Below are positions 4,050-31,353 of a stretch of DNA of 41,775 nucleotides, piece by piece. Location of the stretch: the sequence record MH363708; one strand, given 5' to 3'. Under the pieces are notes generated by a model. It saw only the letters and a program-made list of their open reading frames with translations, searched no databases and was not told the DNA's origin. The translations under genes and the position numbers were made by a program. Within the stretch, counting starts at the first letter, position 1; the number at the start of each line of letters is the position of its first letter. Source of the stretch: Escherichia phage C130_2.

Positions 4050-4739
4050 ATGCAAAACAAAAAAGTATTCGTTAAAGAGGATCGCTATCTGGTGATCAAG
4101 CGCGCTGACCTGGAAGCGGCAACCGCTGCGGGGCTGCTGTCAGTTGGTCAGATTGCGATCCTGAATAAGATCCTTTGCGAGTCCAGCCGGATCCGCAGCA
4201 ACCGTGGCGCACGCCCGCTGCACGGCCTGTTTGTTGAAAATGACTGGCCTGAATACGACGCCGTTTTAAAGATGATTGCAGACCGCGTGGAAGGCGTGGA
4301 CGGCGCTGATAAGCAGGGGCCGATCCTTTACTGCATCGTTGACGCTGACGGCTTGCCATTCATGCAGGAATACTGCGTTGATCTGGATGCAGCCGCATTG
4401 CAAAAAGAAGTGGACGCGATGAACGAGCAAGACGGGATCCCCCCAGGTGGTGACGGCTTCCGCGTCGTGCCCCTTGAGGTGTACACCATTTCAGGCGCGC
4501 AACAACGCTGGGCCTGGTCAACGATCTTTGATCGCTTCCTGCGCACATTCCCTGAGCAAATGAACGTGCCCAACCGCAACGCAACCACGATGATTGATGA
4601 TCTGCTGGGTGAGTACGGCGAGATCCGCGATAATGCCCAGGCGGTGATCGACGAACTCGAAGAGGCGGCGAGCCATTCACCGGACGCCCGCCCAGCGATC
4701 AACAACGCGATCAAACTTCTCCGGGGTCTGCACAAATAG
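4050..4739 (+). CDS. Hypothetical early protein (229 aa), acidic
   Basis: Long ORF with GAGG RBS; no recognisable motif. Confidence 0.6.
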   Translation: MQNKKVFVKEDRYLVIKRADLEAATAAGLLSVGQIAILNKILCESSRIRSNRGARPLHGLFVENDWPEYDAVLKMIADRVEGVDGADKQGPILYCIVDADGLPFMQEYCVDLDAAALQKEVDAMNEQDGIPPGGDGFRVVPLEVYTISGAQQRWAWSTIFDRFLRTFPEQMNVPNRNATTMIDDLLGEYGEIRDNAQAVIDELEEAASHSPDARPAINNAIKLLRGLHK

Positions 4740-6761: not shown

Positions 6762-7061
6762 ATGAATAAACTTTGGGCATGGTTAAAGACTCGCGGGAGT
6801 AAAGCCCGTATTGTGTTAATCGGTGGGTTGGTAGCCTTCACGGCTTACATTCACTTTTCGGCGGATCGACTGCGTGAGCGTTTAACGATCCTTTGGGGCA
6901 CTTTCACTGCGACGGCTGGCGCGCTTAGTCTTGGGGATGTGGCGATCATTGTCGGTATTCTCTGCACAATCGGATCACTCCTTATTAACTGGTATTACAA
7001 GGCGCGCGATGATAAGCGGAAAGAGGCCATTTTCCGTAAAGGCAGGATCATTGATGAATAG
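6762..7061 (+). CDS. Holin, class II / pinholin-like
   Basis: 99 aa, two hydrophobic helices, highly charged C-terminus ([16 protein letters not shown]) resembling the tail of phage 21 S pinholin; overlaps the endolysin start; GAGGA RBS. Confidence 0.6.
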
Positions 7062-7545
7062 CAAATTGTTTACAAAATTCACGGCGGCACTTGGAGGCGG
7101 GGCGCTGGCTGTCGCCTTCGCTTTGCTGTCCGGTCAAAATGGGTTAGAGGGGCGTGAGTATATCCCTTATCAAGATATTGTGGGGGTCTGGACGGTCTGC
7201 GACGGTCACACCGGCCCCGATATCATCAAGGGCAAGCGGTACACGGATCGGGAGTGTGACGCGCTCACCAAAGCCGATTTAAAACGCATCGCCAGCCAGA
7301 TCGATCCCAATATCAAAGTTAAGTTGCCGGAAACCGTTCACGCGGCGATCTATACCTTCGCCTATAACGTGGGCGCGGGTGCCTTCAACAAGTCAACCAT
7401 GCTGCGCAAAATCAACGCCGGTGACACCATCGGCGCTTGCAATGAGTTGCAACGCTGGGTTTACGCTGGCGGCAAGAAGTGGAAGGGGTTGATCAACCGC
7501 CGTGAGGTTGAAACAACCGTTTGCAAATGGAGCCTTACCAAATGA
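7054..7545 (+). CDS. SAR endolysin (T4-lysozyme / GH24 family, phage 21 R-like)
   Basis: N-terminal signal-anchor-release segment ([18 protein letters not shown]), then [25 protein letters not shown]...[12 protein letters not shown], closely resembling phage 21 R lysozyme as recalled. Confidence 0.85.
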
Positions 7546-8078
7546 CGTGGGCCGCTGTAGTTGCAGCGATCCAACGGTGGTGGAAGCCAGCCGCGCTGCT
7601 GTTGCTGCTGGGTGGATCCTTCGCCGCCGGCACGGCCTGGAATGATCGGGGCTGGCAAGCAAAATGGGCTGATCGGGATGCAAAAGAATCCTCCCAGGAA
7701 ACGAACGCGCAGACCGCAGCCCGCATGATTGAACAAGGGCGAACCATTGCCCGTGAAGAGGCTGTGAAAGATGCACAACAACAAGCGGCAAAAGCTGCTG
7801 CCACTGCTGCTGGCCTGTCTGCCACTGTTAGCAAGTTGCAGCAACAAGCCGGAAAACTCGCAACCCGCCTGGACGCCGCAAAGCACACCGCAGATCTTGC
7901 CGCTGCCGTCGCAAGCAAGACAACCGGCGCAAACGCCGCAATGCTCGCCAACATGCTCGGAAGCCTTGCAGAAGAAGCTAAATATTATGCTGGAAGATCT
8001 GACGAAAGCTATCGGGCCGGAATGACGTGTGAAAGGATTTACGATCAGGTGCGGGAGTCAAACAACAAGGGGCCATGA
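7542..8078 (+). CDS. i-spanin (Rz-like)
   Basis: ATGA overlap with the endolysin stop; N-terminal TM helix then Ala/Gln-rich coiled-coil periplasmic domain; last gene of the lysis cassette. Confidence 0.65.
7771..8025 (+). CDS. o-spanin (Rz1-like lipoprotein) embedded in the +1 frame of the i-spanin gene
   Basis: Lies entirely within 7542-8078 in another frame; signal peptide with lipobox LLASC, proline-rich mature part with Cys residues; the classic lambda/P21 nested arrangement. Confidence 0.6.
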
Positions 8079-8092
8079 TGGCCCCTTTTTTT
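8069..8092. terminator. Bidirectional intrinsic terminator between the lysis cassette and the convergent Ig-like gene
   Basis: GGGGCCATGATGGCCCC followed by T7 on the plus strand and a U-rich stretch on the minus strand. Confidence 0.6.
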
Positions 8093-8888
8093 ATGCTGCT
8101 GGGTTAACTGTGACCGTGCAAACGTTGCTGGTAACGGTTTTCGGCGCGTTGTTGTTCGCGCTGGTAACGGTGCAACGGAAGCGCTTGCCGCTGTCGGATT
8201 CCTGCGGGGTGGCAAATGTCAGCGTTGGGCCGGTAGCGCCAGTGATGCCGGACGCGCCCCCGTTCGTTACGTTCGTCCAGGTGGCGCCGTCCGTGGACTG
8301 CTGCCACTGGTACGTGTAAGGCAACAAGCCGTCAGCCGCCACAACCGCCAGGCTTGCTGAGGTGCCAGCCGTCCAGGTTGCAGTCGCTGCAAGGTTCGTG
8401 GTCAGGCGGATCGCAACTTTGGTGCGCTCGCGCAGTGATTCCACGGTTTGCCCTGCGGAGTCGGTAACACGGCAGAAGTAATCACCGTTGTTGCTCGCTG
8501 CATAAGACGGGATGTTATAGGTATTCTGATCCGATCCGATTGGGTTATCAGTCGAAGAAGCGCGGCGAAACCATGCGTAATGATACGGCGGGATCCCGCC
8601 TTCCATTTCCACGGTGAAAGTTTTGTTTGCGCCCAGCGCCAGATAAGTTGCCGTGGCGTCACTGCCGTTATTGCCTGGCAGGTTGGTTGCGAAGGTGAGC
8701 GGGGGCACCTGGTTTGGATCCAGTTCGATATAAAACATACCAGTTGGATCCAGCGTGAGTGCTGCCTCTTGCTCTGCGGTCAGGTAGATAACGGAAAGTT
8801 GCGGAGTCTGCCCGCCGTCCGGCCCCGCAATGCGGGTGACTTTCCAGCCCTTAAGGGCGCGATCAGGGTGTCGGTGCCAAAAGCCCAT
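8091..8888 (-). CDS. Ig-like (I-set type) tandem-domain protein, possible virion decoration or adhesin
   Basis: 265 aa; two repeats with the Ig signature (PYHYAWF...GDYFCRV and PYTYQWQQSTDG..W...DSGKRFRCTV); AGAGG RBS. Confidence 0.55.
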   Translation of the reverse strand: MGFWHRHPDRALKGWKVTRIAGPDGGQTPQLSVIYLTAEQEAALTLDPTGMFYIELDPNQVPPLTFATNLPGNNGSDATATYLALGANKTFTVEMEGGIPPYHYAWFRRASSTDNPIGSDQNTYNIPSYAASNNGDYFCRVTDSAGQTVESLRERTKVAIRLTTNLAATATWTAGTSASLAVVAADGLLPYTYQWQQSTDGATWTNVTNGGASGITGATGPTLTFATPQESDSGKRFRCTVTSANNNAPKTVTSNVCTVTVNPAA

Positions 8889-10734: not shown

Positions 10735-11529
10735 TTAATATGGCACGTTGGCATTTGAGAGGAAAACGGCTTCGGCAAAGCCTCGCGGCGTCACACTCCT
10801 GATCGCCTTTGTCCTGGCATTCCGGCCCCCTGCGGCGTACCAGCCAGGATTGCAGCGCTTCCCGTTGATCAGCTGTATGGGCACCGGATTTTTTGGAGGC
10901 ATCACGAATGCTTCATTGCACCAAATGCCGGTTTTCTTCGGGTACGCATCGCGCGGCGGGTAGATCGTCGGGTAGATCGGGTGAGCGTCCACCTCTGGCA
11001 GATAGCCGCCATACTCGAACGGGTCGAAGGTGTGATCCGGCCTTCTCCACTGCGTGTTAAGCGTGTTAACTGCCGGATTCTCAAGCATCCACGGGATCTG
11101 CTTGCCGTCGCCGTTCTGCATGTCGCAGTAACCAGCAACCCACATCACCAGCTTTGCCAGCCTGATCGCGTCCTGCTGATCCTGTCGGCGGTTCGGGTAG
11201 TTTGGATGCGGGCGGCGCTCGCTGGTTGGCAAGTGCTTATCATCTGGATGATAGAACCACTTCGCGCCGGTGGTGGTTAGGTACGTGCATTCAGCGAAGC
11301 TGGCGACGAACTCAACGCCAGGGCCAACCATGCTGGCGATCTCCTGCGCTTGATTCACGATATCATGAGCCTTGAACCACATCCCCACGCGAACGATCAG
11401 AGGATTGACCGGATCGCGGTGAATGCCGTCAGGGTGTTTGCCGTCGAATAACCAACATTCATAACCTGCCCCCAACCAGGGGGCGGGCATAATGTCCGAT
11501 TCGTTAAAAAGGAAAATGGCTTTGCGCAT
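10735..11529 (-). CDS. Hypothetical enzyme-like protein (264 aa), function unknown
   Basis: Long ORF coupled to the upstream gene; His/Asp/Cys-rich; contains ENP and a C-terminal PRGFAEAV segment only faintly like C5-methyltransferase motifs. No confident assignment. Confidence 0.5.
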   Translation of the reverse strand: MRKAIFLFNESDIMPAPWLGAGYECWLFDGKHPDGIHRDPVNPLIVRVGMWFKAHDIVNQAQEIASMVGPGVEFVASFAECTYLTTTGAKWFYHPDDKHLPTSERRPHPNYPNRRQDQQDAIRLAKLVMWVAGYCDMQNGDGKQIPWMLENPAVNTLNTQWRRPDHTFDPFEYGGYLPEVDAHPIYPTIYPPRDAYPKKTGIWCNEAFVMPPKNPVPIQLINGKRCNPGWYAAGGRNARTKAIRSVTPRGFAEAVFLSNANVPY

Positions 11530-12600: not shown

Positions 12601-13329
12601 TTATAAGACGCTTGCGGAAGCGTCCAGCATATCTTGCTTAGTAAGATAATCCGTCTTCACTGGCCCGCGTTTGCGTGGCTTAATCAGGAATAGTGAACTT
12701 GCCTTACTGTTTTTCCGGCCTTCCACTTCGGTTGCCGCATTCACGAATGCTACGCGCCCGTTATGGAATTTTTCTTCGCCTTTGGCGTCGGTGCCGTAAT
12801 AGCCCATGATGTTTACAATCTCGCTGCACGCCTGGATCATGTCATAGAACCATTGCGGCGAGTGGTCATGATTCAGAAGCATAACCGTTGTCACGCCATG
12901 CTGTTTTGCATTTCGTGCTGCTGCTGCAACCCAGGGGATCGGGTCTGCATACGGTGGATTACACCAGACGGTTTCCCCCTCCTTGCCCCATGCCACCTGC
13001 GGATCCAGCGCGTTTTGCTGCTCGTCGATAAACTCAACGCAAAGGGCGTTTCCGGCCTCTGCCGCAACGTCACGCGCGAACGGCCCCCAGCGGTGATCGG
13101 CATAGTTAAACAACCATTTTGGGGTGCGCCATTTCTGCCGGATAGCGTCAGGGGTTTTGCTCTTCGCAAAGCGTCGGCCCGTAATGACCTGATCCACTTC
13201 CTCCGGGGTTGCCGCCAGCGCGCCAGCGCCAGCCGCTTTCAATGCCTCTTCCAGCACCGCTTGCGGGATCGCAAAGTCTGCTGCCACCTGCGCAAGATCA
13301 ACGGTCTTGCTGTCGTTTTCGTCTTTCAT
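12601..13329 (-). CDS. DNA N6-adenine methyltransferase (phage Dam-like)
   Basis: Catalytic motif WCNPPY; ATG at 13329 overlapping the dUTPase stop (TGATG). Confidence 0.8.
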   Translation of the reverse strand: MKDENDSKTVDLAQVAADFAIPQAVLEEALKAAGAGALAATPEEVDQVITGRRFAKSKTPDAIRQKWRTPKWLFNYADHRWGPFARDVAAEAGNALCVEFIDEQQNALDPQVAWGKEGETVWCNPPYADPIPWVAAAARNAKQHGVTTVMLLNHDHSPQWFYDMIQACSEIVNIMGYYGTDAKGEEKFHNGRVAFVNAATEVEGRKNSKASSLFLIKPRKRGPVKTDYLTKQDMLDASASVL

Positions 13330-13781
13330 CACTTCGCCTTTTTATCAGTTGAGCCAAAGCCGTTGGCACCGCGTGCCGTGTCTTTGATCGTTTCCACTTC
13401 CGCGATCTGCCACTGCGGCGCGTCAACGATCATGCCCTGGGCAATAGCCGTGGTTGGGTCAATGGCTGGATATTCGCCGGTAGGGCGATCAGAAACGATT
13501 TTTACTTTCACCTCTCCGGTATAGTCGCTATCGATCACCCCCACGCAATTTGACAAGCGCGCATCCTGCTTGAATCCGTGCCCGCTGCGGCTGTAAATCA
13601 TCAGGGCTTTGCCCTTCGGAATGTCGAATACCAGCCCCGTTGAGAAGATCAGGGCGTTGATTTTTTCGTCGTAACTGCTTTCGATCCCGTAAATGTCGAA
13701 ACATGCTGATCCCTCGGTTGCATATTCTGGCAGACGCGCCAGGGGGTTTAACTTCTTAACGCCTAACACATTTGATCCCAT
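13329..13781 (-). CDS. dut: dUTP diphosphatase (dUTPase)
   Basis: Motifs SRSG, GVIDSDYTGE and C-terminal RGANGFGST characteristic of trimeric dUTPases; GAGG RBS. Confidence 0.85.
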   Translation of the reverse strand: MGSNVLGVKKLNPLARLPEYATEGSACFDIYGIESSYDEKINALIFSTGLVFDIPKGKALMIYSRSGHGFKQDARLSNCVGVIDSDYTGEVKVKIVSDRPTGEYPAIDPTTAIAQGMIVDAPQWQIAEVETIKDTARGANGFGSTDKKAK

Positions 13782-20704: not shown

Positions 20705-20733
20705 ATAAGGGGCCATTGCGGCCCCTTTTTTTA
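20705..20733. terminator. Bidirectional intrinsic terminator between the plus-strand block and the tailspike gene
   Basis: A-run, GGGGCCATTGCGGCCCC, T7. Confidence 0.65.
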
Positions 20734-22983
20734 TGTTGGCGTGCGGAACGACACAACTTTTGCCGCTGCAAGCTGGGTGCCAGCCGGTGTGGCGGTCTGG
20801 ATAGCGTGAGCAATATCGATCCTGATCTCACTGGTTGGATCGTTCACGTTGACACGATAAGGCCCGCGCGTGATCCACGTAGAAAGAGGATTGCCCCCTT
20901 CACCGGCACCAGGGATCACAATTCGGCACCCTGGCGAAAGTGGCGTTTTGTAGATCCAGACCATATCACCATTATTGCCACCTAGCGGAAAGTTTGAAGC
21001 AATCGAGAAGGATCCCACGGTGGTTGCCTTGATTTTAAATTCATCAATGGCGGGAATGTACGCGCCGGAGGCGGTCACAACGAAGATCTTTCCGTCATTT
21101 CGAACAACGAGATCCCCCTCCATGAACTCACGCCCCGTGGGGAATGCGTTACCATCCCAAATGCCCGTGGCGTTCATATCAGCCGGTGACGGAATGATAT
21201 AAGTGTGATTCGATGCGGTCATTTTTGCACCGATCCCGCCGTCAATCCCCTGGCGCGGATATGGGCGCGCAAAGACGTTGGATCCTACGCTTTCGATATG
21301 CGAATAGGCGCAGCGTGACCAACCTTGATCGCCGTAGCCGTTCACGTCAGTTGCGTTAACGTTGACCATTCGCAAGATGGTGCGCCCCGTGGCAAGGTAG
21401 CCGTTTGAAGCTGTGCCGCCCGATGAATCATCACCCACGCAATCAAAGATCCGGCAATGAACATTGCTCATGTTCAATTCAGTTGCCACACCGAAAAGCG
21501 AGAATTTCGCCACGTTCACATTTTCAATGTAATACGTGTTAGTTGCCCCTGCCTTCTCGGTGCCGATACCGGCATAAAAGCGCCCTGTTTTACTGTATAC
21601 GTTGCGGATCGCCATATCGTGACAAGGGCCGCGCGCGCCAACGCCAGCATTTGTGCCCCATTCAAGCATAATAACGCGCACATCCTGGGCAAGCGTGCTG
21701 CCGGTAACTACCGGTTCACCGTAAACCCCATCAATGGAGCAACGGCGGGAGCCGTAGAAAAGCACCGTCGCAACCGTCAGGCCGGAACCGTTCGAAACGT
21801 TCTGGTTGGGGTCGCCGTGGATGTTTTCAACAACGGAATCACGAACCATTTCGAAGTGTACGATCTGACGCACTTTGTTTGCGTAAACGTTACGGATCGT
21901 AATGTTTTTGGCAAAGTTTGCGTCAGGTGTATCAATGCCATAAGGGCTTTGACCTGCAACCCCAATCCCAATACCCCAGTTTGACGGCGTGATCGGGGCT
22001 TGGCCTGTTGAGTCGATGTTATCAAGGAAAATGCCGTCAATCAGGCAACCATTATCATAATGGCGCTGTACTACGTTTAACTCGATCCCGTCGCCGCCCA
22101 TATCGTAAAACGACAAATTGCGGTAGACGCCGGACACAACCGTTGATCCCGTGCCTTGCTGGAGGATGCCGTAAAGGCCATTCCGAAACTCGGAATCGCT
22201 GACCTCAATAGTGCTTCCGTCCACTGGCACACCCTGCATCATGATTGATGCAACCTTGCTGGTTGTCGGCTTACCGTCAAACATGCAATCGCGGATCCTT
22301 ACGTCGCCGCCGTAGTGCATGATTCGCAGGTTGTTAATCACTGCACCTTCGATCAGGGTGTCAGTCAGGCGAAAATCTGCGGTGCCCTTCCAGGTTCCCC
22401 CCATGATGGTGATCCCATTCGGGTTGACCGTGCTTTCAAGCGTGCCAGACCAACCATAAGCGTTGACGATCTTCCCGTTCGCTTTGGCGTAGTCAAACAT
22501 TGCCTGAATCGCCTGTGAAACGCTGGTGTACTCTTCGCGGCCCACAAAATCAAACGGCGTCACAAAGCCTTGCAGTTTGGTTTTTAGCGTGCCTTCTGGC
22601 GTGCCCACGTATTCCCAGCCGGTAGACGATCCGATCACCTTCCACATCTGCGCCGCGTCATATTCCAGAAGGTTATCAAAGGAATATTGCAGCACGTCAT
22701 TGCGATCATAAACGTCCATGCTTGATGCGGTCTGCGTCACAAAGCGCCCAACAATCCCGTTATATTCGGGATAGCCGCTCTGGTTGATTTTGATCGGCTG
22801 CGGCACCGGCACCAGCGTTAGATCCTCATTTTCCAGGTACACTTGCACCTGATTTGCCGGATCCTTCGGGTTGGTGTCGGGCTTGCCAATATAGATATCA
22901 CCGCCGCTGATAGGCGCAAACTTGCCAACCTGAATAAACGGGCTGGACGGCATACGCACGGCAGAAAAAACAATATCGCTCAT
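20731..22983 (-). CDS. Tailspike protein (P22-like N-terminal head-binding domain, beta-helix receptor-binding domain)
   Basis: ATG at 22983 with GAGG RBS; N-terminus GDIYIGKPDTNPKDPANQVQVYLENED...PIKINQSG..YNG matches the P22 tailspike head-binding domain as recalled; rest is Gly/Asn/Val-rich, consistent with a parallel beta-helix. Confidence 0.85.
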   Translation of the reverse strand: MSDIVFSAVRMPSSPFIQVGKFAPISGGDIYIGKPDTNPKDPANQVQVYLENEDLTLVPVPQPIKINQSGYPEYNGIVGRFVTQTASSMDVYDRNDVLQYSFDNLLEYDAAQMWKVIGSSTGWEYVGTPEGTLKTKLQGFVTPFDFVGREEYTSVSQAIQAMFDYAKANGKIVNAYGWSGTLESTVNPNGITIMGGTWKGTADFRLTDTLIEGAVINNLRIMHYGGDVRIRDCMFDGKPTTSKVASIMMQGVPVDGSTIEVSDSEFRNGLYGILQQGTGSTVVSGVYRNLSFYDMGGDGIELNVVQRHYDNGCLIDGIFLDNIDSTGQAPITPSNWGIGIGVAGQSPYGIDTPDANFAKNITIRNVYANKVRQIVHFEMVRDSVVENIHGDPNQNVSNGSGLTVATVLFYGSRRCSIDGVYGEPVVTGSTLAQDVRVIMLEWGTNAGVGARGPCHDMAIRNVYSKTGRFYAGIGTEKAGATNTYYIENVNVAKFSLFGVATELNMSNVHCRIFDCVGDDSSGGTASNGYLATGRTILRMVNVNATDVNGYGDQGWSRCAYSHIESVGSNVFARPYPRQGIDGGIGAKMTASNHTYIIPSPADMNATGIWDGNAFPTGREFMEGDLVVRNDGKIFVVTASGAYIPAIDEFKIKATTVGSFSIASNFPLGGNNGDMVWIYKTPLSPGCRIVIPGAGEGGNPLSTWITRGPYRVNVNDPTSEIRIDIAHAIQTATPAGTQLAAAKVVSFRTPT

Positions 22984-23035
22984 TGTTGGTGCCTCGTTGT
23001 TGTATTCAGGCTTTAGTGTATAGACGTTCAGGAAA

Positions 23036-23057
23036 TTAAAAAAGGGGCCGAAGCCCC
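23036..23057 (-). terminator. Intrinsic terminator (UUCG hairpin plus U-run) upstream of tailspike
   Basis: Minus strand GGGGC-TTCG-GCCCC followed by TTTTTTT; the 20-mer is identical to the terminator at 31301-31320. Confidence 0.6.
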
Positions 23058-23062
23058 TTTGG

Positions 23063-26000
23063 TTACTGCTGCCCGTAGATCTGGATCCGCTGCTCACCGT
23101 CAGGGCCGGTGATTAACGGCGGGCGCTCGTCGGTCTGCTCACCGTCGCTGGCTGCTGCCGCTGCCGGAGTACCGGCAAGCCATGCGATGAAACCAGCGCG
23201 GGCGATTTGACGTTGATCAGCCTCGGCAAGCGTGGCGATAAAGTCTTGGGCCGCTTTGCTGTTCGCAAGGCGTCGCTCTGTGGTGTTGATGATCGTCCGG
23301 CTTGGGCCGCTGGATCCATCGTCTGCCACCATGCGAGCAACCGCCCTGATCGCCTGGGTCATATCATCACCGGCGAGGAAACGATCCGCAACCTGCGAAG
23401 CCGCAGCACGGTTGGCAACTGCCCCGCGCGCAGCCTCAACGGCAACGTTACCGAAGCCAGGAGAAACCGCAGCCGCCGCCGATTGCGTCAACATGGCACC
23501 GATCCGCGTGTTAAAGACTTTATCCAAAAAGTCATTGCTGTTGTTGAAGCGGCGCGAAAAGTTGTTGATCTTGCCGGTGGCGGCGAAAGATTCACCCTCT
23601 TTGCGGGCTGCGTTGGCGACTTTCGCCAGGTTGTCAACAACTGCACGCTGATCCGCTGGCAGGTGCTGCATGAGCATTCCCAATTTGCCTGAGTTGCGCG
23701 CCTCGGTGTACCACTTCGCAAAGCCTGGAATGTTCAGGCGTTCGCCGGTGGTGCCGCTCATGCGGAATGCCATTGCAAGCGCGTTGGTCGCAACCTGCGG
23801 GCGCATAGCCGCTGGCGTTGATCGCATGAGAGTTTGAAAACCCTTTGGATCTGCGCCTTTGGTGCCCAGCGCTTTAACAGCCTGATAAATCTTGCTGCTT
23901 GCGGAATTATCAAGCTCTTTGCCCAGCACGGCTTGCTGTTTGGCCTGTAGCGCCACGCGCTGACGGGTCAGATCCTTTGCCGCATCCCACGCATCTTTCA
24001 CGCCAAACTGTGCCGCCACATCCCCTTGATCCTCGGTTAAACGGCTGTACATGGCGTTAAGGCGCGCAACGTTCGCATCCTTGTATGGGCCTTGACGCTT
24101 GTTAATCGCCGCGCCAACGTCTTTGCGCACATCGTCCAGAAGGGCGAAAGTCGGCCCGCCTCGGCTGTCGCTGGTTGGGCTTAGGCGTTCCAATACGCTA
24201 CGCTCAATCGGATCCAGGTTGGCTGCGCCGCCACGGTTACTGGCTTTCTGGTTGAGGTAATCAACCGTCTTTTCTGGATTTACCGGAGTGTGATCCGGGA
24301 TCGTGCGCAATGATTTGTTATAGGCCGCAGTTTCAGCGGTGCCGATATCATCGATCAGTCGGCTTGTCTCTGCCTTGAATGCCTGATCGAAGGTGAGATC
24401 CTCAACCGGCCCGCCTAAGTCTTCCAGCACCTTATCTGCGCGGGCAGTCAACGCCTGATACTGGCGGCTCTGCTTCTCACCCAAAAGGGATCCGGTTTCG
24501 CTGCGCAGGTTGCCGATCACGTCGCGGGTTGACTTGTCGCGCATAAACAGGCCAGGCGTCAGATCGTCAGTCACGCCCAATTCATCTGCGGCGCGCACAA
24601 CCTCTGGATCGATATCGCCACGGCGCGCAAGGTTGATCGCCGCGTTCGGTGCGCTGGAAGTCTCGCCGGTTGCCGCGTCGGTTACTGTGGTGCGCGGTGC
24701 GCTTCCGCGTGCTGCTGCGGTTGCATCCTGTCGCACGGCGTCAATAGCGGCTTGTTGCGTCGCTTCTGCGCCACCAGTACCAGTGCCAGTGCCCGCGCCC
24801 GTTGCGTCCTCTGCTGGGCGGATCAGATCACGGATCACCGGTGCTGCACGCCGTGCGGCTGCGCCAACGGCATTTACTGCCGCCTCGCCCACTGGCCCTG
24901 CTGCGATGCCGATCAGCGCGTCTTGCTGGTCGCCTTCGCTGGCTGCAAGGGCACCTGGCACGGCACGGGTTGCCGGTGCTGCGATCCGTTGCTCAAGGAA
25001 TCCCCCCAAACGGGAAAGGATGCTCGCAACCTCTGGCGAAGCTGTGCCCGCCAATTCTGCCATTTCGCGTGCGATACCCTGAATTTTCGGGGCTGCTGAC
25101 ATAGCCGCGCCACCAGGGATCGGGGTCAGACCGGCGATCAACTTCGCGCCAAACTGAGCATAAGGATCTTCGGGATCATCAAGCCCCATGCCGATCCGGC
25201 CTTCGGGGATCGGGGTATAGGTGCCGTCACCCAGCCCAACTTGCTTGCCCAGCCATGCACCGGCAGACTGTGCCGCGTTCGCTGCATAGATCGGGATGTT
25301 GAGCACGTCTTCTGCTGCGCGCACTAAACCTTTGCCCGCCTGAGTCAGATCGCGCCCAATCGTTGTGGGTGCCTGGTAATCCTGCAACTGCTCTGCGCTG
25401 TAGTAGTCGCCGCTGGTGTCTGGTTGCGGCTGTGCGGCGCTCTGCTGCGTCGTGGCGGCTTGCGGCTGTGGTTGGGTGTCCATAGTCGCTTGCGGCTGTT
25501 CTGGCGCTGCTGGCTGCGTTTCCTGCGGTGCTCGCGGGGTCAGTTCGCCAAACTGGCTGGCAAATTTGTTGGTTGATCCGGTGTCGCCGGCACGGGCGCT
25601 GGTTGCCCGCTGTGGCGCGTCGGAGTCTGTGACCGCACCCAAAGCGCGATCAATCGGGTTAACGCCGCCCGTCCACTGGTCAAAGCGTGAATCGACGTAT
25701 TGACGCCCTTCCGGCCCTGGGGTGTACTCGCCTTTTAACATGGCGTCGGTGTTGCCTGGGCCGTCATGGTACGCTTGCAGGGCCAGCCCCCAATCGCCGT
25801 AGCGGTCATACATCTGGCGCAGGTATTTTGCGCCCGCTTCGGCCTGTAGCGCAGGATTGTTGCGCACCTCTGCTGGGTCATAGCCCATATCGCGCAGCGT
25901 GCCTGGCATAACCTGAGTGCCACCAATGGCACCTTTGCTGGACGTTGCGCCAGTGTCGCCGCCAGACTCTTTGCCAACGAGCGCAGACATAAGCCCTTCT

Positions 26001-26128
26001 GGAATGCCCTGTGATGCGCCCGCCGCTTCCCAATGATTGCCGCCCTGCTGCTGCGGGGCGGTCTGCTGCGGTTGTGCCTGGGCGTTGCCGCCCAGGTTCC
26101 CGAAAGTTGCCGCAAAGTTGAAAGCCAT
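23063..26128 (-). CDS. Ejection / internal virion protein with N-terminal lytic transglycosylase (SLT) domain
   Basis: 1021 aa; N-terminal GKESGG...GGTQVMPGT...AYHDGPGN SLT signature; long Ala/Gly/Thr-rich low-complexity remainder; in the position of P22 gp16. Confidence 0.7.
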   Translation of the reverse strand: MAFNFAATFGNLGGNAQAQPQQTAPQQQGGNHWEAAGASQGIPEGLMSALVGKESGGDTGATSSKGAIGGTQVMPGTLRDMGYDPAEVRNNPALQAEAGAKYLRQMYDRYGDWGLALQAYHDGPGNTDAMLKGEYTPGPEGRQYVDSRFDQWTGGVNPIDRALGAVTDSDAPQRATSARAGDTGSTNKFASQFGELTPRAPQETQPAAPEQPQATMDTQPQPQAATTQQSAAQPQPDTSGDYYSAEQLQDYQAPTTIGRDLTQAGKGLVRAAEDVLNIPIYAANAAQSAGAWLGKQVGLGDGTYTPIPEGRIGMGLDDPEDPYAQFGAKLIAGLTPIPGGAAMSAAPKIQGIAREMAELAGTASPEVASILSRLGGFLEQRIAAPATRAVPGALAASEGDQQDALIGIAAGPVGEAAVNAVGAAARRAAPVIRDLIRPAEDATGAGTGTGTGGAEATQQAAIDAVRQDATAAARGSAPRTTVTDAATGETSSAPNAAINLARRGDIDPEVVRAADELGVTDDLTPGLFMRDKSTRDVIGNLRSETGSLLGEKQSRQYQALTARADKVLEDLGGPVEDLTFDQAFKAETSRLIDDIGTAETAAYNKSLRTIPDHTPVNPEKTVDYLNQKASNRGGAANLDPIERSVLERLSPTSDSRGGPTFALLDDVRKDVGAAINKRQGPYKDANVARLNAMYSRLTEDQGDVAAQFGVKDAWDAAKDLTRQRVALQAKQQAVLGKELDNSASSKIYQAVKALGTKGADPKGFQTLMRSTPAAMRPQVATNALAMAFRMSGTTGERLNIPGFAKWYTEARNSGKLGMLMQHLPADQRAVVDNLAKVANAARKEGESFAATGKINNFSRRFNNSNDFLDKVFNTRIGAMLTQSAAAAVSPGFGNVAVEAARGAVANRAAASQVADRFLAGDDMTQAIRAVARMVADDGSSGPSRTIINTTERRLANSKAAQDFIATLAEADQRQIARAGFIAWLAGTPAAAAASDGEQTDERPPLITGPDGEQRIQIYGQQ

Positions 26129-27451
26129 TTAAAGCCCCTCTGGTAAATAGCCCGCCCATTCTTTAAAGGCGCGTTTGTTCTCTTCTGACGGGTCAGAGAG
26201 TAGCATTTTGCGCGCCTGGGCTGGTACTCCCAATTCATCCAGCTTGGGATCATTCATCACCGCATCATAACGGCTGGTGTTGTTGGTGTATTCCTTCACG
26301 CGCCCGCCGTTGGCTTTTTCGTACCCATCGCGCAAACGCTTAAGGTAGTTGCCAAAGTTTTTGATCGCACGCTGTGCCGCTGCCGGATCCTGAATGTTTT
26401 CAGGGTCGAAGCCCATCAACGATTGCGTGATCGCCATGCTTTCTTTTTCGGACATGCCCGCAGCCGTACCGGATGCAGCCTTGAGTGCCGCCATTGATTG
26501 CGACATTGCCAGGCCTTGAAGTGACTTAAGATCCTGCACCAGTTGCTTTTCATCGTTCGCGCCAGGGATGTTGCGCGCAATGGTGCCGCTTAAACCGCTT
26601 GCGCCTTCCCACGCCGTCTGCAAACGCTGTTTGCTGGCTGGGTTTTTCTGGTTGTCAGGGATCAGGCGGTTGACCTGTCCAATTGCATTATCAAGCGTCG
26701 TAACCTGGCTGTTGTAGCCGTTCAGCCAGTCGCGCTGGGTGTCTACGGTGTCGCCGTATACCTGCGCTTGTTTCTGCTGCGCTGCGGTGCGCTCACGCTC
26801 GCTCTTCGCCAGTTCGGCTTGCTGCTTGGCTTGCTGGCCCTGATAGCGCAAAAAGTTAAACTGGCGATTCATAGCCAGATTAGCCGCCTGGATATCCTGC
26901 GAGCGAGCCGTAAGGCGGTTGCGCTCAACCTCGTTGGCGTAGTCCAGTTGGTCTTTTGTGCCCATGCTGGAAAGCTGCACCGCGTGAACCGCCTGTTCAA
27001 AGCCCTGCTGGTCTGTCTGGTACTGCTCCCACGCATCCTGCGGATCGATGTTCAGCGCCTGGAATGCACCGGCGTTTTGCTGAATAAACTGCTGTACCTG
27101 CTGCGGCCCCTGAGACATTGCCACGCGCACGCCGTTTGCAAGCTGGCCCGCCTGGGTCGCTTGCATATCGTCTTGCAGCCCGATCCGCTCTTTCAGGGTG
27201 CTAATCATCGACGGGTATTTATAAACCAGATCATTCAGCTTTTGCGGATCGCCGCGTGCCGCGCTCCAATCCTGGTTAAACTGCTGCAATTGCTGCTGCT
27301 GCTGATCCTGCTGCTGCATGGCTTTAGCACGGATCTGGTTCTGCTGCTGCAATCCGGTGTTTTGCTGGATCGTCTGAATGTTATTGAGCGTGTTTTGCCC
27401 TGCGCGCTCAATAACCCCCATGTTTTGACCGAAAACGCTCATATCTGACAT
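26129..27451 (-). CDS. Ejection protein (P22 gp20-like by position), Gln-rich
   Basis: 440 aa, translationally coupled, very Q-rich; assignment by synteny only. Confidence 0.45.
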   Translation of the reverse strand: MSDMSVFGQNMGVIERAGQNTLNNIQTIQQNTGLQQQNQIRAKAMQQQDQQQQQLQQFNQDWSAARGDPQKLNDLVYKYPSMISTLKERIGLQDDMQATQAGQLANGVRVAMSQGPQQVQQFIQQNAGAFQALNIDPQDAWEQYQTDQQGFEQAVHAVQLSSMGTKDQLDYANEVERNRLTARSQDIQAANLAMNRQFNFLRYQGQQAKQQAELAKSERERTAAQQKQAQVYGDTVDTQRDWLNGYNSQVTTLDNAIGQVNRLIPDNQKNPASKQRLQTAWEGASGLSGTIARNIPGANDEKQLVQDLKSLQGLAMSQSMAALKAASGTAAGMSEKESMAITQSLMGFDPENIQDPAAAQRAIKNFGNYLKRLRDGYEKANGGRVKEYTNNTSRYDAVMNDPKLDELGVPAQARKMLLSDPSEENKRAFKEWAGYLPEGL

Positions 27452-28113
27452 TAGATCATCGCTCCAAAGAAGCTGCCCGCCGCTTGCGGTGCGCCGTTAA
27501 GATCCTGCGCAACGCCGTTACCGATAGAGTTGTTCATATAGGCCGCTGTCATCCACGGCAACGCCGCTTTCTGGCCCTGAATGTTCCCTTTCGTCTGGTA
27601 GAGGCCGGAAAGGTTGTTAGCCGTACCGGTAGCGAAGCCGCCCAACTGCGCGCCAGCGTTCGCGCCAGTGCCCGCAATATCCATCAGGTTTGAAAAACGA
27701 TCCTGATACTGCTGATACATTTGCGTTAAGTAGTTCTGGCCCAACTGCGACGCGATAGATCCCAGGCGGTTTTGCGTGGTGCTCGCGCCCAGCGTGCCAG
27801 TTGCCTCGGCAGACGCTAACGCCGCGTTGTTCGCCGCGTTGCTCATTAGGCCGTATTCCTGCCCGCCGTAGAAGTCGGACAAAAGACCGGCGCGATCAAA
27901 GCCGTCTGACAACTGGCCTTGAGCCTGGCCCAGCGCGTCTTGACCTGCATCAACGTATGGATCCAGATAGTTTTGCGCAGTTTGCAGCCCTTCACGCTGC
28001 GCGCCCATTGCCTTATCGGTGTACTTGCTTTGCTGTTTTAACTGCTTGTTGGTGCCGATGCCGCCTAACAAGCCGCCAACGGCGTTGGTTACACCGCTAA
28101 CAATCCCGCCCAT
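27451..28113 (-). CDS. Ejection protein (P22 gp7-like by position)
   Basis: 220 aa, Gly/Ala/Gln-rich; AGGAGG RBS; synteny only. Confidence 0.45.
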   Translation of the reverse strand: MGGIVSGVTNAVGGLLGGIGTNKQLKQQSKYTDKAMGAQREGLQTAQNYLDPYVDAGQDALGQAQGQLSDGFDRAGLLSDFYGGQEYGLMSNAANNAALASAEATGTLGASTTQNRLGSIASQLGQNYLTQMYQQYQDRFSNLMDIAGTGANAGAQLGGFATGTANNLSGLYQTKGNIQGQKAALPWMTAAYMNNSIGNGVAQDLNGAPQAAGSFFGAMI

Positions 28114-28495
28114 ATGGCAACCTCCTTAAAAAAAAGTAATTTTCGTATGTGCCATCGTGCATAAGCACCCTATCAACCGGAGATTCTACAAAGCCGCCCA
28201 TTTTTAGTACAACGTTTTTAACGTGTCGGCGGTGCTCGGCAATGGGCACCCTGATCGGGAAGTGGCCCCACTTTTCGATAAACTCGCGGCACATTTGGCG
28301 GGAATGGCGGCGCGCATCCTTACGCATCGCCATGTGACCATCGATCCCGCCTTCCTCGTTATTGTGGACGCAAAACACGCCACAATCGTTGAATAGCCAG
28401 AATTGGGAAGACGGCGGCACATCGTCGGGCCATTCCGTCACGCCCCATTCACGCATCAAGCGGCACCCCTCTTGGGTGGAGATCTGGATCAGCAT
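28097..28495 (-). CDS. Hypothetical virion-module protein (P22 gp14 position)
   Basis: 132 aa, Cys/His-containing; overlapping start with the upstream gene. Confidence 0.45.
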   Translation of the reverse strand: MLIQISTQEGCRLMREWGVTEWPDDVPPSSQFWLFNDCGVFCVHNNEEGGIDGHMAMRKDARRHSRQMCREFIEKWGHFPIRVPIAEHRRHVKNVVLKMGGFVESPVDRVLMHDGTYENYFFLRRLPYGRDC

Positions 28496-31300: not shown

Positions 31301-31320
31301 AAAAAAGGGGCCGAAGCCCC
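31301..31320 (-). terminator. Intrinsic terminator after the coat gene
   Basis: Minus strand GGGGC-TTCG-GCCCC followed by TTTTTT; identical to 23036-23057. Confidence 0.65.
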
Positions 31321-31353
31321 TTATTTATACACTTTTCAATCAGGTTGCGCCAG

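Follow-up and report, generated by a model that had tools for sequence, protein, structure and literature searches.

A P22 gp16-type ejection protein with an N-terminal SLT domain in Escherichia phage C130_2

The gene and its neighbours

The window analysed here is a 41,775-nt stretch of DNA from Escherichia phage C130_2, in which no tRNA genes were found. The 1021-aa ORF at 23063-26128 (Table 1) is confirmed and lies on the minus strand, a detail unstated in the original prediction; the frame on the plus strand across the same interval is full of stops. Its ATG comes directly after the stop codon of the gp20-like gene and has a ribosome-binding site, GAGGGG, ~7 nt upstream. The terminator-like hairpin found at the 3' end of the gene also occurs after the coat gene, at 31305-31322. 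By exact-sequence look-up the product is identical in all residues to YP_009812584.1 / AXC34344.1 of C130_2, and A0A384ZRT2 matches it at 100% in BFVD. Its database names are 'DNA transfer protein' and, for the UniProt entry A0A384ZRT2, 'Transglycosylase SLT domain-containing protein'. The fusion of an SLT domain to a gp16-type protein in C130_2 is already known and annotated, and is ordinary among related phages.

Table 1. Coordinates of the 1021-aa gene, its parts and associated features
Feature	Position	Strand	Basis or remarks
SLT + gp16-type ejection ('DNA transfer') protein, 1021 aa	23063..26128	(-)	ORF list; ATG start
N-terminal leader, aa 1-29, Q/G/A-rich	26042..26128	(-)	pLDDT ~30; mean hydropathy -0.68
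SLT lytic transglycosylase domain, aa 30-165, including conserved post-SLT extension (P139, E140, Y144, D146, R148, F149)	25634..26041	(-)	
Glu54 codon, predicted catalytic acid/base	25967..25969	(-)	Aligned with Slt catalytic Glu and T7 gp16 E37
Linker 1, aa 166-257, Q/P-rich, predicted disordered	25358..25633	(-)	Composition, entropy; pLDDT <50
Conserved gp16 core, aa 258-436	24821..25357	(-)	Motifs G-(K/R)-G-L...N-I-P...D-P-Y-A-Q...P-x-P-G; hhalign, BLASTP
Linker 2, aa 437-504, Ala/Gly/Thr-rich (TGAGTGTGTGG)	24617..24820	(-)	Poorly conserved; low model confidence
All-helical C-terminal body, aa 505-985, phrog_6704 type	23174..24616	(-)	pLDDT 70-90 over 505-850 and 910-985
C-terminal tail, aa 986-1021, and stop codon	23063..23173	(-)	Specific to C130_2 + STP9 lineage; low model confidence
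Intrinsic-terminator-like hairpin (AAAGGGGCTTCGGCCCCTTT, then T-run)	23041..23060	(-)	Directly 3' of the stop codon of the 1021-aa gene
gp20-like ejection protein, 440 aa, functional partner	26129..27451	(-)	Pfam Inj_translocase PF16928, 57.5 bits; phrog_2534
gp7-like ejection protein, 220 aa, functional partner	27451..28113	(-)	Pfam P22_gp7 PF25688, 51 bits; phrog_598
Separate lysis cassette: holin, Phage_lysozyme endolysin (140 bits), Rz-like spanin, embedded lipoprotein ORF	6762-8078	(+)	

The gene is the last of a gp7-gp20-gp16 block and stands before a tailspike gene with a P22 Head_binding domain, which is the position of gp16 in P22-type phages. The same order (gp7-like, gp20-like, gp16-type, tailspike) is seen in P22, Sf6, Sf101, and Skarpretter. 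phrog_770, which P22 gp16 itself matches at 887 bits, matches aa 134-905 of the C130_2 protein (E 2.5e-40). This synteny and the phrog_770 match, along with the match of the core to Sf6 and P22 gp16 and the Pfam SLT match given below, bear out the proposal that an ejection protein with an N-terminal SLT domain occupies the gp16 position. On this sequence evidence the 1021-aa protein is a P22 gp16-type ejection protein carrying an N-terminal SLT domain, and is probably functional. A search of the available literature found no virion proteomics of C130_2 or close relatives and no explicit discussion of SLT-gp16 fusions.

Some family names suggest an external tail-associated lysin (a 'lytic tail fiber protein') rather than an internal ejection protein: the N-terminal part hits phrog_21143 ('lytic tail fiber protein') and phrog_2013 ('lytic tail protein'), and the RefSeq name of the Sf101 homolog is 'lytic tail fiber protein'. 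However, these PHROG matches extend no further than the SLT domain and gp16 core, and phrog_21143 is also hit by P22 gp16. The location of the gene within the ejection block, its gp16 core, the lack of any fiber, spike, or baseplate domain in a Pfam search, and the presence in C130_2 of its own tailspike and needle all make a tail lysin very improbable. A role in end-of-infection host lysis instead of entry, as an endolysin or auxiliary lysin, might be considered because SLT domains are known in some phage endolysins and phrog_669 and phrog_1044 ('endolysin') match weakly. Yet C130_2 has a complete separate lysis cassette, given which the endolysin reading was rejected, and the 1021-aa protein is fused to a gp16 core, belongs to the late virion operon, and lacks any signal or SAR sequence; we regard any part in lysis as extremely improbable.

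The SLT domain

The profile search proposed as a check on the original prediction finds Pfam SLT (PF01464) on aa 33-135 at 63.1 bits (E 2.2e-17), with the cutoff at 21.3 bits. The three motifs quoted in that prediction (ES, QVMPGT, and AYHDGPGN) are all present, as K53-E54-S55, Q72-V-M-P-G-T77, and A119-Y-H-D-G-P-G-N126, and are invariant or nearly so in an alignment of 25 homologs. In the alignment with P. aeruginosa Slt, Glu54 falls on the catalytic Glu, at a column where the inactive-mutant chains 6fcq and 6fc4 have Q. In the AF2 model aa 30-165 have a pLDDT of 80-94 and adopt the goose-lysozyme-like α-helical fold. No matches were returned when PDB sequences were searched with the full-length protein, and the isolated N-terminal 170 aa gave weak matches to Slt and MltE. 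Outside the family, the closest SLT relatives are other virion entry enzymes, i.e., PRD1 P7 and tape-measure/tail proteins. By sequence and fold the domain is a family-1 (Slt-type) lytic transglycosylase; it looks active and is very likely functional, though the activity itself is inferred.

The SLT domain could alternatively be catalytically inert, serving only for peptidoglycan binding or anchoring, or as a 'wing' in the structure of the conduit, the part played by T7 gp16-N in the periplasmic tunnel. Besides its catalysis, this domain of T7 has a structural place in the tunnel (PMC8954989), the best Foldseek match in PDB is the T7 tunnel chain itself (7k5c_B, T7 gp16-N), and many P22-type phages do without an SLT domain. 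Against this, all of the signature motifs are conserved as described and Glu54 is invariant (25/25 homologs) at overall identities down to ~30%. The domain is also the best-conserved region of the family, with 27% invariant columns versus about 1-4% elsewhere and 50-72% identity between homologs whose bodies share 26-49%; such conservation would not be expected for a mere scaffold. We consider an inert domain distinctly unlikely; a dual role, as enzyme and structural element, is conceivable.

The rest of the protein and the distribution of the fusion

The leader that precedes the SLT domain lacks a hydrophobic core in a hydropathy scan and is unlike a secretion signal; in the alignment it is absent from Sf101-type homologs, which begin directly at the SLT domain. 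What follows the SLT domain had been described as a long Ala/Gly/Thr-rich low-complexity region, which proved overstated. Low complexity is confined to aa 201-240 (Q+P 48%, within linker 1) and aa 441-480 (A+G+T 65%, within linker 2). Between these stretches is the conserved core, and aa 505-985 are confidently modelled as helical. The supposed region is in fact a pair of short linkers, one on either side of a conserved gp16 core, in a protein whose overall composition is A 17%, G 10%, and T 7%. Linker 1 varies in length among homologs and is gap-rich in the alignment, with 1% invariant columns, and linker 2 has zero invariant columns. The C-terminal tail region is 60% gaps in other homologs.

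The core is common to the C130_2 protein and the SLT-less gp16 of P22 and Sf6. hhalign aligns query residues 247-436 with 73-246 of the Sf6 homolog at 99.9% probability, and the core with P22 gp16 residues 66-137 at 91.7% probability; BLASTP aligns P22 gp16 74-247 with residues 263-460 of the C130_2 protein (E 2e-5). Sequence homology to P22 and Sf6 gp16 is found for the core only. The core contains Ala/Gly-rich, moderately hydrophobic segments, with hydropathy peaks at 275-293, 328-346, and 405-423. No segment of the 1021-aa protein reaches transmembrane-level hydrophobicity, the maximum 19-residue Kyte-Doolittle mean being 1.37, and classical transmembrane helices were rejected on this ground.

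The helical body matches phrog_6704 (E 3.7e-69) and is of a type shared by Sf101, Skarpretter, and an SLT-less protein of E212. It has no specific structural match in PDB, and direct comparison with the C-terminal part of P22 gp16 by BLASTP and hhalign detects no similarity. The case for homology between these two C-terminal parts draws on synteny, the common core, and intermediates.

By describing the SLT domain as grafted into a P22-type ejection set, the original prediction implied something unusual. The fusion is in fact widespread and already annotated, this exact protein included. It occurs in Skarpretter (gp17), IME_EC2, Lumpael, Sortsne, IME279, Kosakonia phages Kc237 and Kc259, Sf101 (gp13), and Huey, and in prophages of Serratia, Klebsiella, Cronobacter, Hafnia, and E. 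coli. PF01464 is present in each of the best 120 database clusters. These SLT-gp16 homologs are 30-49% identical to the C130_2 protein over nearly their full length (30% over the full length for that of Sf101, a Lederbergvirus), and they share its domain order (SLT, linker, core, helical body) and its place after a gp20-like gene; they differ in linker lengths, N-terminal leader, and C-terminal tail. PF26808, precomputed on P22 gp16, is listed for more distant SLT-bearing homologs and not for the C130_2 protein's own cluster.

The SLT domain is found with and without each of two body types. P0088 combines it with a P22-type body (33% identity to P22 gp16 74-598, E 4e-74), and P22 gp16 has that body without it; C130_2 and Sf101 combine it with the phrog_6704-type body, which the Lederbergvirus E212 has without it (26% identity to the C130_2 body, E 4e-45). 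The domain thus appears to behave as an optional N-terminal module that assorts independently of the body. Annotation does not always follow these differences: the SLT-less gp16 of E212 is labelled 'transglycosylase', and the SLT-bearing gene of Sortsne is truncated in RefSeq. A natural split of the Sortsne gene, with the SLT domain apart from the body, was rejected, since one uninterrupted ORF of 1015 aa can be read there; the apparent split is an artefact of annotation.

Wall cutting in P22-type ejection sets would accordingly be an optional plug-in module on gp16, one present in true Lederbergviruses, Sf101 among them, and in many prophages. The natural two-by-two set (with or without SLT, on two body types) would offer a convenient system for asking when virion muralytic activity is needed in podovirus DNA entry. 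For C130_2 itself the practical value is small: an annotated domain is confirmed as very likely functional.

Proposed role in entry and comparison with known systems

The reading we favour, and consider quite probable, is that of an ejection protein of the P22 gp16 class, packaged in the virion, with a catalytically competent family-1 lytic transglycosylase at its N-terminus. By homology and synteny with P22, the protein would be packed in the capsid alongside its gp7-like and gp20-like partners. In P22, ~12 gp16 molecules are injected per virion. Once the phage has adsorbed and the needle plug is released, the C130_2 protein would leave in extended form via the portal/tail channel; ~340 of its residues are flexible and of low model confidence, which is compatible with such a state. 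With no signal-like or hydrophobic segment at its N-terminus, the protein would need ejection to reach the periplasm. There the SLT domain would refold and use Glu54 to cleave MurNAc-GlcNAc bonds, opening a local hole in the peptidoglycan for a trans-periplasmic conduit. The core and helical body would then join the inner membrane and, with the gp20-like tube, complete the channel for DNA, as suggested by the biochemistry of P22 gp16, which is membrane-associated and works with gp20 in the DNA conduit (PMC10883804). Sequence alone does not support this membrane step, offering only the moderately hydrophobic Ala/Gly-rich segments noted above.

T7 depends on gp16-N only where the peptidoglycan is highly cross-linked (PMC8954989), and by analogy the SLT module of C130_2 probably matters mostly under that condition; this would explain why P22, Sf6, and E212 manage without one. 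The SLT domain and aa 135-175 (invariant residues P139, E140, Y144, D146, R148, F149, and Q173) might also dock on the gp20-like tube as T7 gp16-N, through its 'wings' and 'molecular tape', docks on gp15. If so, the ejectosomes of SLT-bearing P22-type phages would have kept a periplasmic-tunnel architecture of common ancestry with T7, with P22 and Sf6 as variants that lost it secondarily. We regard this extension of the favoured reading as unlikely.

Among known systems, P22 gp16 (609 aa) and its Sf6 homolog (665 aa) share with the C130_2 protein their position in the ejection set, the core, and phrog_770. Both lack an SLT domain by Pfam, and where C130_2 has SLT and linker they have ~43-70 unrelated N-terminal residues; their C-terminal half is not detectably similar to that of C130_2 in direct comparison. 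The statement in the original prediction that the P22 protein is shorter and without SLT was correct, and the suggested comparison with Sf6 and P22 gave the same result for both, with the core common to all three.

The likeness to T7 gp16 (internal virion protein D, 1318 aa) that had been proposed holds for the SLT domain (~120 residues) and fails for the rest of the protein. Both proteins have an N-terminal SLT domain, with E37 of T7 opposite E54, followed by an 'EGRxY' extension, and each is the last and largest product of a three-gene ejection set. BLASTP aligns C130_2 aa 33-150 with T7 gp16 16-144 at 28% identity, and the hhalign alignment covers only aa 30-149. Beyond the SLT domain no homology was found by sequence or fold, the molecular-tape region and C-terminal hub of T7 gp16 included. 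T7 gp16 also forms an internal core stack, which according to a review P22-type phages do not have (PMC8954989). PRD1 P7 and other virion-borne entry transglycosylases come from another virus lineage and occur in another protein context, where a gp16-type body is absent, but they have a related SLT subtype (~39% identity) and likewise carry it in the virion for genome entry.

The SLT domain and the gp16 core

The gp16-position ejection protein of C130_2 (SLT-gp16) is one ORF of 1,021 codons in the ORF listing, as predicted; on translation, the plus-strand frame over the same interval is not open and has many stops. Its ATG comes right after the upstream gene's stop codon, a GAGGGG ribosome-binding site is found ~7 nt 5' of the ATG, and a GC-rich hairpin with a T-run lies 3' of its own stop codon. 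The original prediction placed a lytic transglycosylase (SLT) domain at the N-terminus. The domain was looked for in Pfam, and PF01464 matched residues 33–135 with 63.1 bits (E = 2.2e-17), against a curated cutoff of 21.3 bits; all three motifs on which the prediction drew are present (K53-E54-S55, Q72-VMPGT77, A119-YHDGPGN126). The N-terminal 170 residues align with PDB sequences of P. aeruginosa Slt, E. coli Slt70, and MltE, and E54 falls on the catalytic Glu column of the Slt alignment, where the inactive mutants 6fcq and 6fc4 have Q. In an AlphaFold2 model from a 25-sequence alignment, residues 30–165 have pLDDT 80–94, and in a Foldseek search of the PDB the top match of the model is the T7 gp16 N-terminal part (7k5c_B) within the ejectosome periplasmic tunnel. 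Within the protein, constraint is strongest in the SLT domain: 27% of its columns are invariant in the homolog alignment versus 1%–4% in other segments, and it is 50%–72% identical in homologs with bodies just 26%–49% identical, which argues for a working enzyme.

Gene order, PHROG 770, and core profile matches agree that this is a gp16-position ejection protein. PHROG 770 matches residues 134–905 (E = 2.5e-40), and P22 gp16 scores 887 bits against the same family. When a profile of the family alignment was compared with single gp16 sequences, residues 247–436 matched Sf6 73–246 (99.9% probability) and residues 255–339 matched P22 gp16 66–137 (91.7%); BLASTP against P22 gp16 gives E = 2e-5. 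A domain search found no SLT match in P22 gp16 (609 aa) or the Sf6 homolog (665 aa); both share the core and are shorter. For P22 gp16, the much smaller size and the lack of SLT had been anticipated. Segments were delimited by combining the model with composition, conservation, and homology. The low-complexity region had been described as long, but conserved sequence is flanked by two short linkers, and the described region therefore amounts to those linkers. Over the whole protein, no transmembrane-level hydrophobicity was found (19-residue Kyte-Doolittle mean ≤1.37).

Features of C130_2 (nucleotides) and segments of SLT-gp16 (residues)
Feature	Position	Strand	Remarks
Lysis cassette	6762-8078	+	holin PF16080, endolysin PF00959, Rz-like DUF2514, embedded lipoprotein ORF
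Lipoprotein-like ORF	7771-8025		84 aa, inside lysis cassette
Hoc-like ORF	8091-8888	-	265 aa; Hoc-like, Ig-domain head-decoration families, phrog_2973, E 4e-52
DNA methyltransferase ORF	10735-11529	-	phrog_757, early region
DNA methyltransferase ORF	12601-13332	-	phrog_111, early region, separate from the preceding
Bidirectional hairpin	20707-20727		3' of tailspike
Tailspike ORF	20731-23097	-	mechanical start GTG 23097
Hairpin with T-run	23041-23060	-	after SLT-gp16 gene
SLT-gp16 gene	23063-26128	-	1021 aa
132-aa ORF	28097-28495	-	position of P22 gene 14
Hairpin with T-run	31305-31322	-	after coat gene
Leader	aa 1-29
SLT domain	aa 30-165
Disordered linker	aa 166-257		Q/P-rich
gp16 core	aa 258-436
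Linker	aa 437-504		Ala/Gly/Thr-rich
All-helical body	aa 505-985		phrog_6704 type, confidently modelled
Tail	aa 986-1021		lineage-specific

Gene context and the lysis system

The minus-strand order is portal, scaffold, coat, gp4-like (P22_Tail-4), gp10-like (Phage_stabilise), needle, a 132-aa ORF of unknown type, the partner ejection proteins gp7-like (PF25688) and gp20-like (PF16928), SLT-gp16, and a tailspike with a P22 Head_binding domain, the same as in P22, Sf6, Sf101, Skarpretter, and Sortsne. The 132-aa ORF shares 17 nt with the start of the gp7-like gene; it has no similarity to P22 gp14 and no Pfam match, and its sole match is phrog_17333 (function unknown). The hypothetical-protein genes Skarpretter gp20 and Sortsne gp35 resemble it in position and approximate length. 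The 132-aa ORF may substitute for gp14/IVP-A in function without being related to it. The mechanical tailspike start would overlap the SLT-gp16 gene; Head_binding begins at residue 39, and ATG 22986, with ACGAGG upstream, is likely the true start. The receptor-binding part matches phrog_6117, "colanic acid degradation" (E = 1.5e-220). The late operon contains two copies of one hairpin (AAGGGGCTTCGGCCCCTT, then a T-run), and P22 likewise has an annotated stem-loop after its coat gene. The Hoc-like ORF is distant from the virion gene block.

C130_2 carries its own lysis cassette. The endolysin scores 140 bits against Phage_lysozyme, has a hydrophobic segment in its N-terminus, and could be of the signal-anchor-release type. 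Inspection of the SLT-gp16 N-terminus revealed no signal-like sequence. A role for SLT-gp16 as the lysis enzyme is therefore rejected, and the protein would reach the periplasm by ejection.

Spread and modularity of the fusion

The predicted fusion of SLT to a gp16-type protein stands as an architecture, but it is already annotated and common among relatives. A 100% identical entry of 1,021 aa in BFVD, A0A384ZRT2, is named [quoted passage not shown], and AXC34344.1/YP_009812584.1, "DNA transfer protein [Escherichia phage C130_2]", is an exact-sequence match; both halves of the interpretation are thus public. SLT-gp16 is a deposited, annotated, and already known member of a widespread family. 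The phage (Hungariovirus C1302, MH363708) was isolated from cheese (PMC7552041). SLT-gp16 shares its architecture with proteins of Stutzerimonas phage STP9 (OR754315, 93% amino acid identity) and Skarpretter (49%), as well as of IME_EC2, Lumpael, Sortsne, IME279, Kosakonia phages, Sf101, Huey, and others. In a 5.8-billion-protein database, PF01464 was found in 120/120 best clusters, many of them on contigs of megabase size from Serratia, Klebsiella, Cronobacter, Hafnia, and E. coli; those homologs are therefore prophages, and are labeled "lytic transglycosylase domain-containing protein". At ≥60% identity the SLT subtype is found in 29 phage records, beyond which its nearest relatives are other virion entry enzymes, e.g., PRD1 P7. 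In precomputed Pfam, PF26808.1 is assigned to P22 gp16 and to many SLT-bearing homologs from prophages, and is listed for neither the C130_2 nor the Skarpretter cluster. STP9 is attributed to Stutzerimonas stutzeri and C130_2 to E. coli/Shigella (window GC 0.554), and the homolog P0123 (WP_439197425.1; protein cluster at ≥90% identity) comes from a 41,553-bp contig of an Enterobacter hormaechei assembly. Among such different hosts of close relatives, at least one attribution may be doubtful.

Both kinds of gp16 body occur with and without SLT. The P22-type body carries it in P0088 of a K. aerogenes prophage (33% identity to P22 gp16 74–598, E = 4e-74) and lacks it in P22; the phrog_6704-type body carries it in C130_2 and Sf101 and lacks it in E212 (no Pfam SLT; 26% identity over query 404–985, E = 4e-45). 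Judged from these sequences, SLT is a module that assorts independently on gp16 proteins, in agreement with the movable muralytic domains of podoviral internal virion proteins described by Hardies et al. (PMC4819975). Its patchy presence fits a conditionally useful function.

The E212 protein (707 aa; locus L008 1811-3934, MZ043897) is named "transglycosylase", and phrog_29864, "transglycosylase", scores 587 bits against the N-terminal half of P22 gp16, where SLT is absent; such labels on SLT-less proteins look like annotation transfer from SLT-bearing relatives. In Sortsne (locus L007 3387-6434, NC_048178) the ORF is continuous (1,015 aa); the RefSeq gene begins at an internal codon (position 4218), and two small "hypothetical protein" ORFs cover the SLT part.

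Entry and comparison with P22 and T7

In P22, ~12 gp16 molecules are injected per virion (PMC8402733), and gp16 is membrane-associated and a partner of gp20 in the conduit (PMC10883804); T7 gp16-N is needed where peptidoglycan is highly cross-linked (PMC8954989). From these data we infer that SLT-gp16 would be packaged within the capsid, ejected via the tail, cleave peptidoglycan locally, and form an inner-membrane conduit. SLT-bearing Sf101-type Lederbergviruses and many P22-module phages and prophages depart from the published pattern, which is valid for P22, Sf6, HK620, and CUS-3 as sampled.

The proposed resemblance to T7 gp16 holds for the SLT domain, including a post-SLT EGRxY extension (residues 33–150 versus T7 gp16 16–144, 28% identity by BLASTP; hhalign coverage, residues 30–149), but not for the remainder, where no match was found by sequence or fold. 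We consider it improbable that SLT and the adjoining conserved segment dock on a gp20-like tube, as T7 gp16-N does on gp15; such docking, if true, would imply a tunnel architecture shared with T7.
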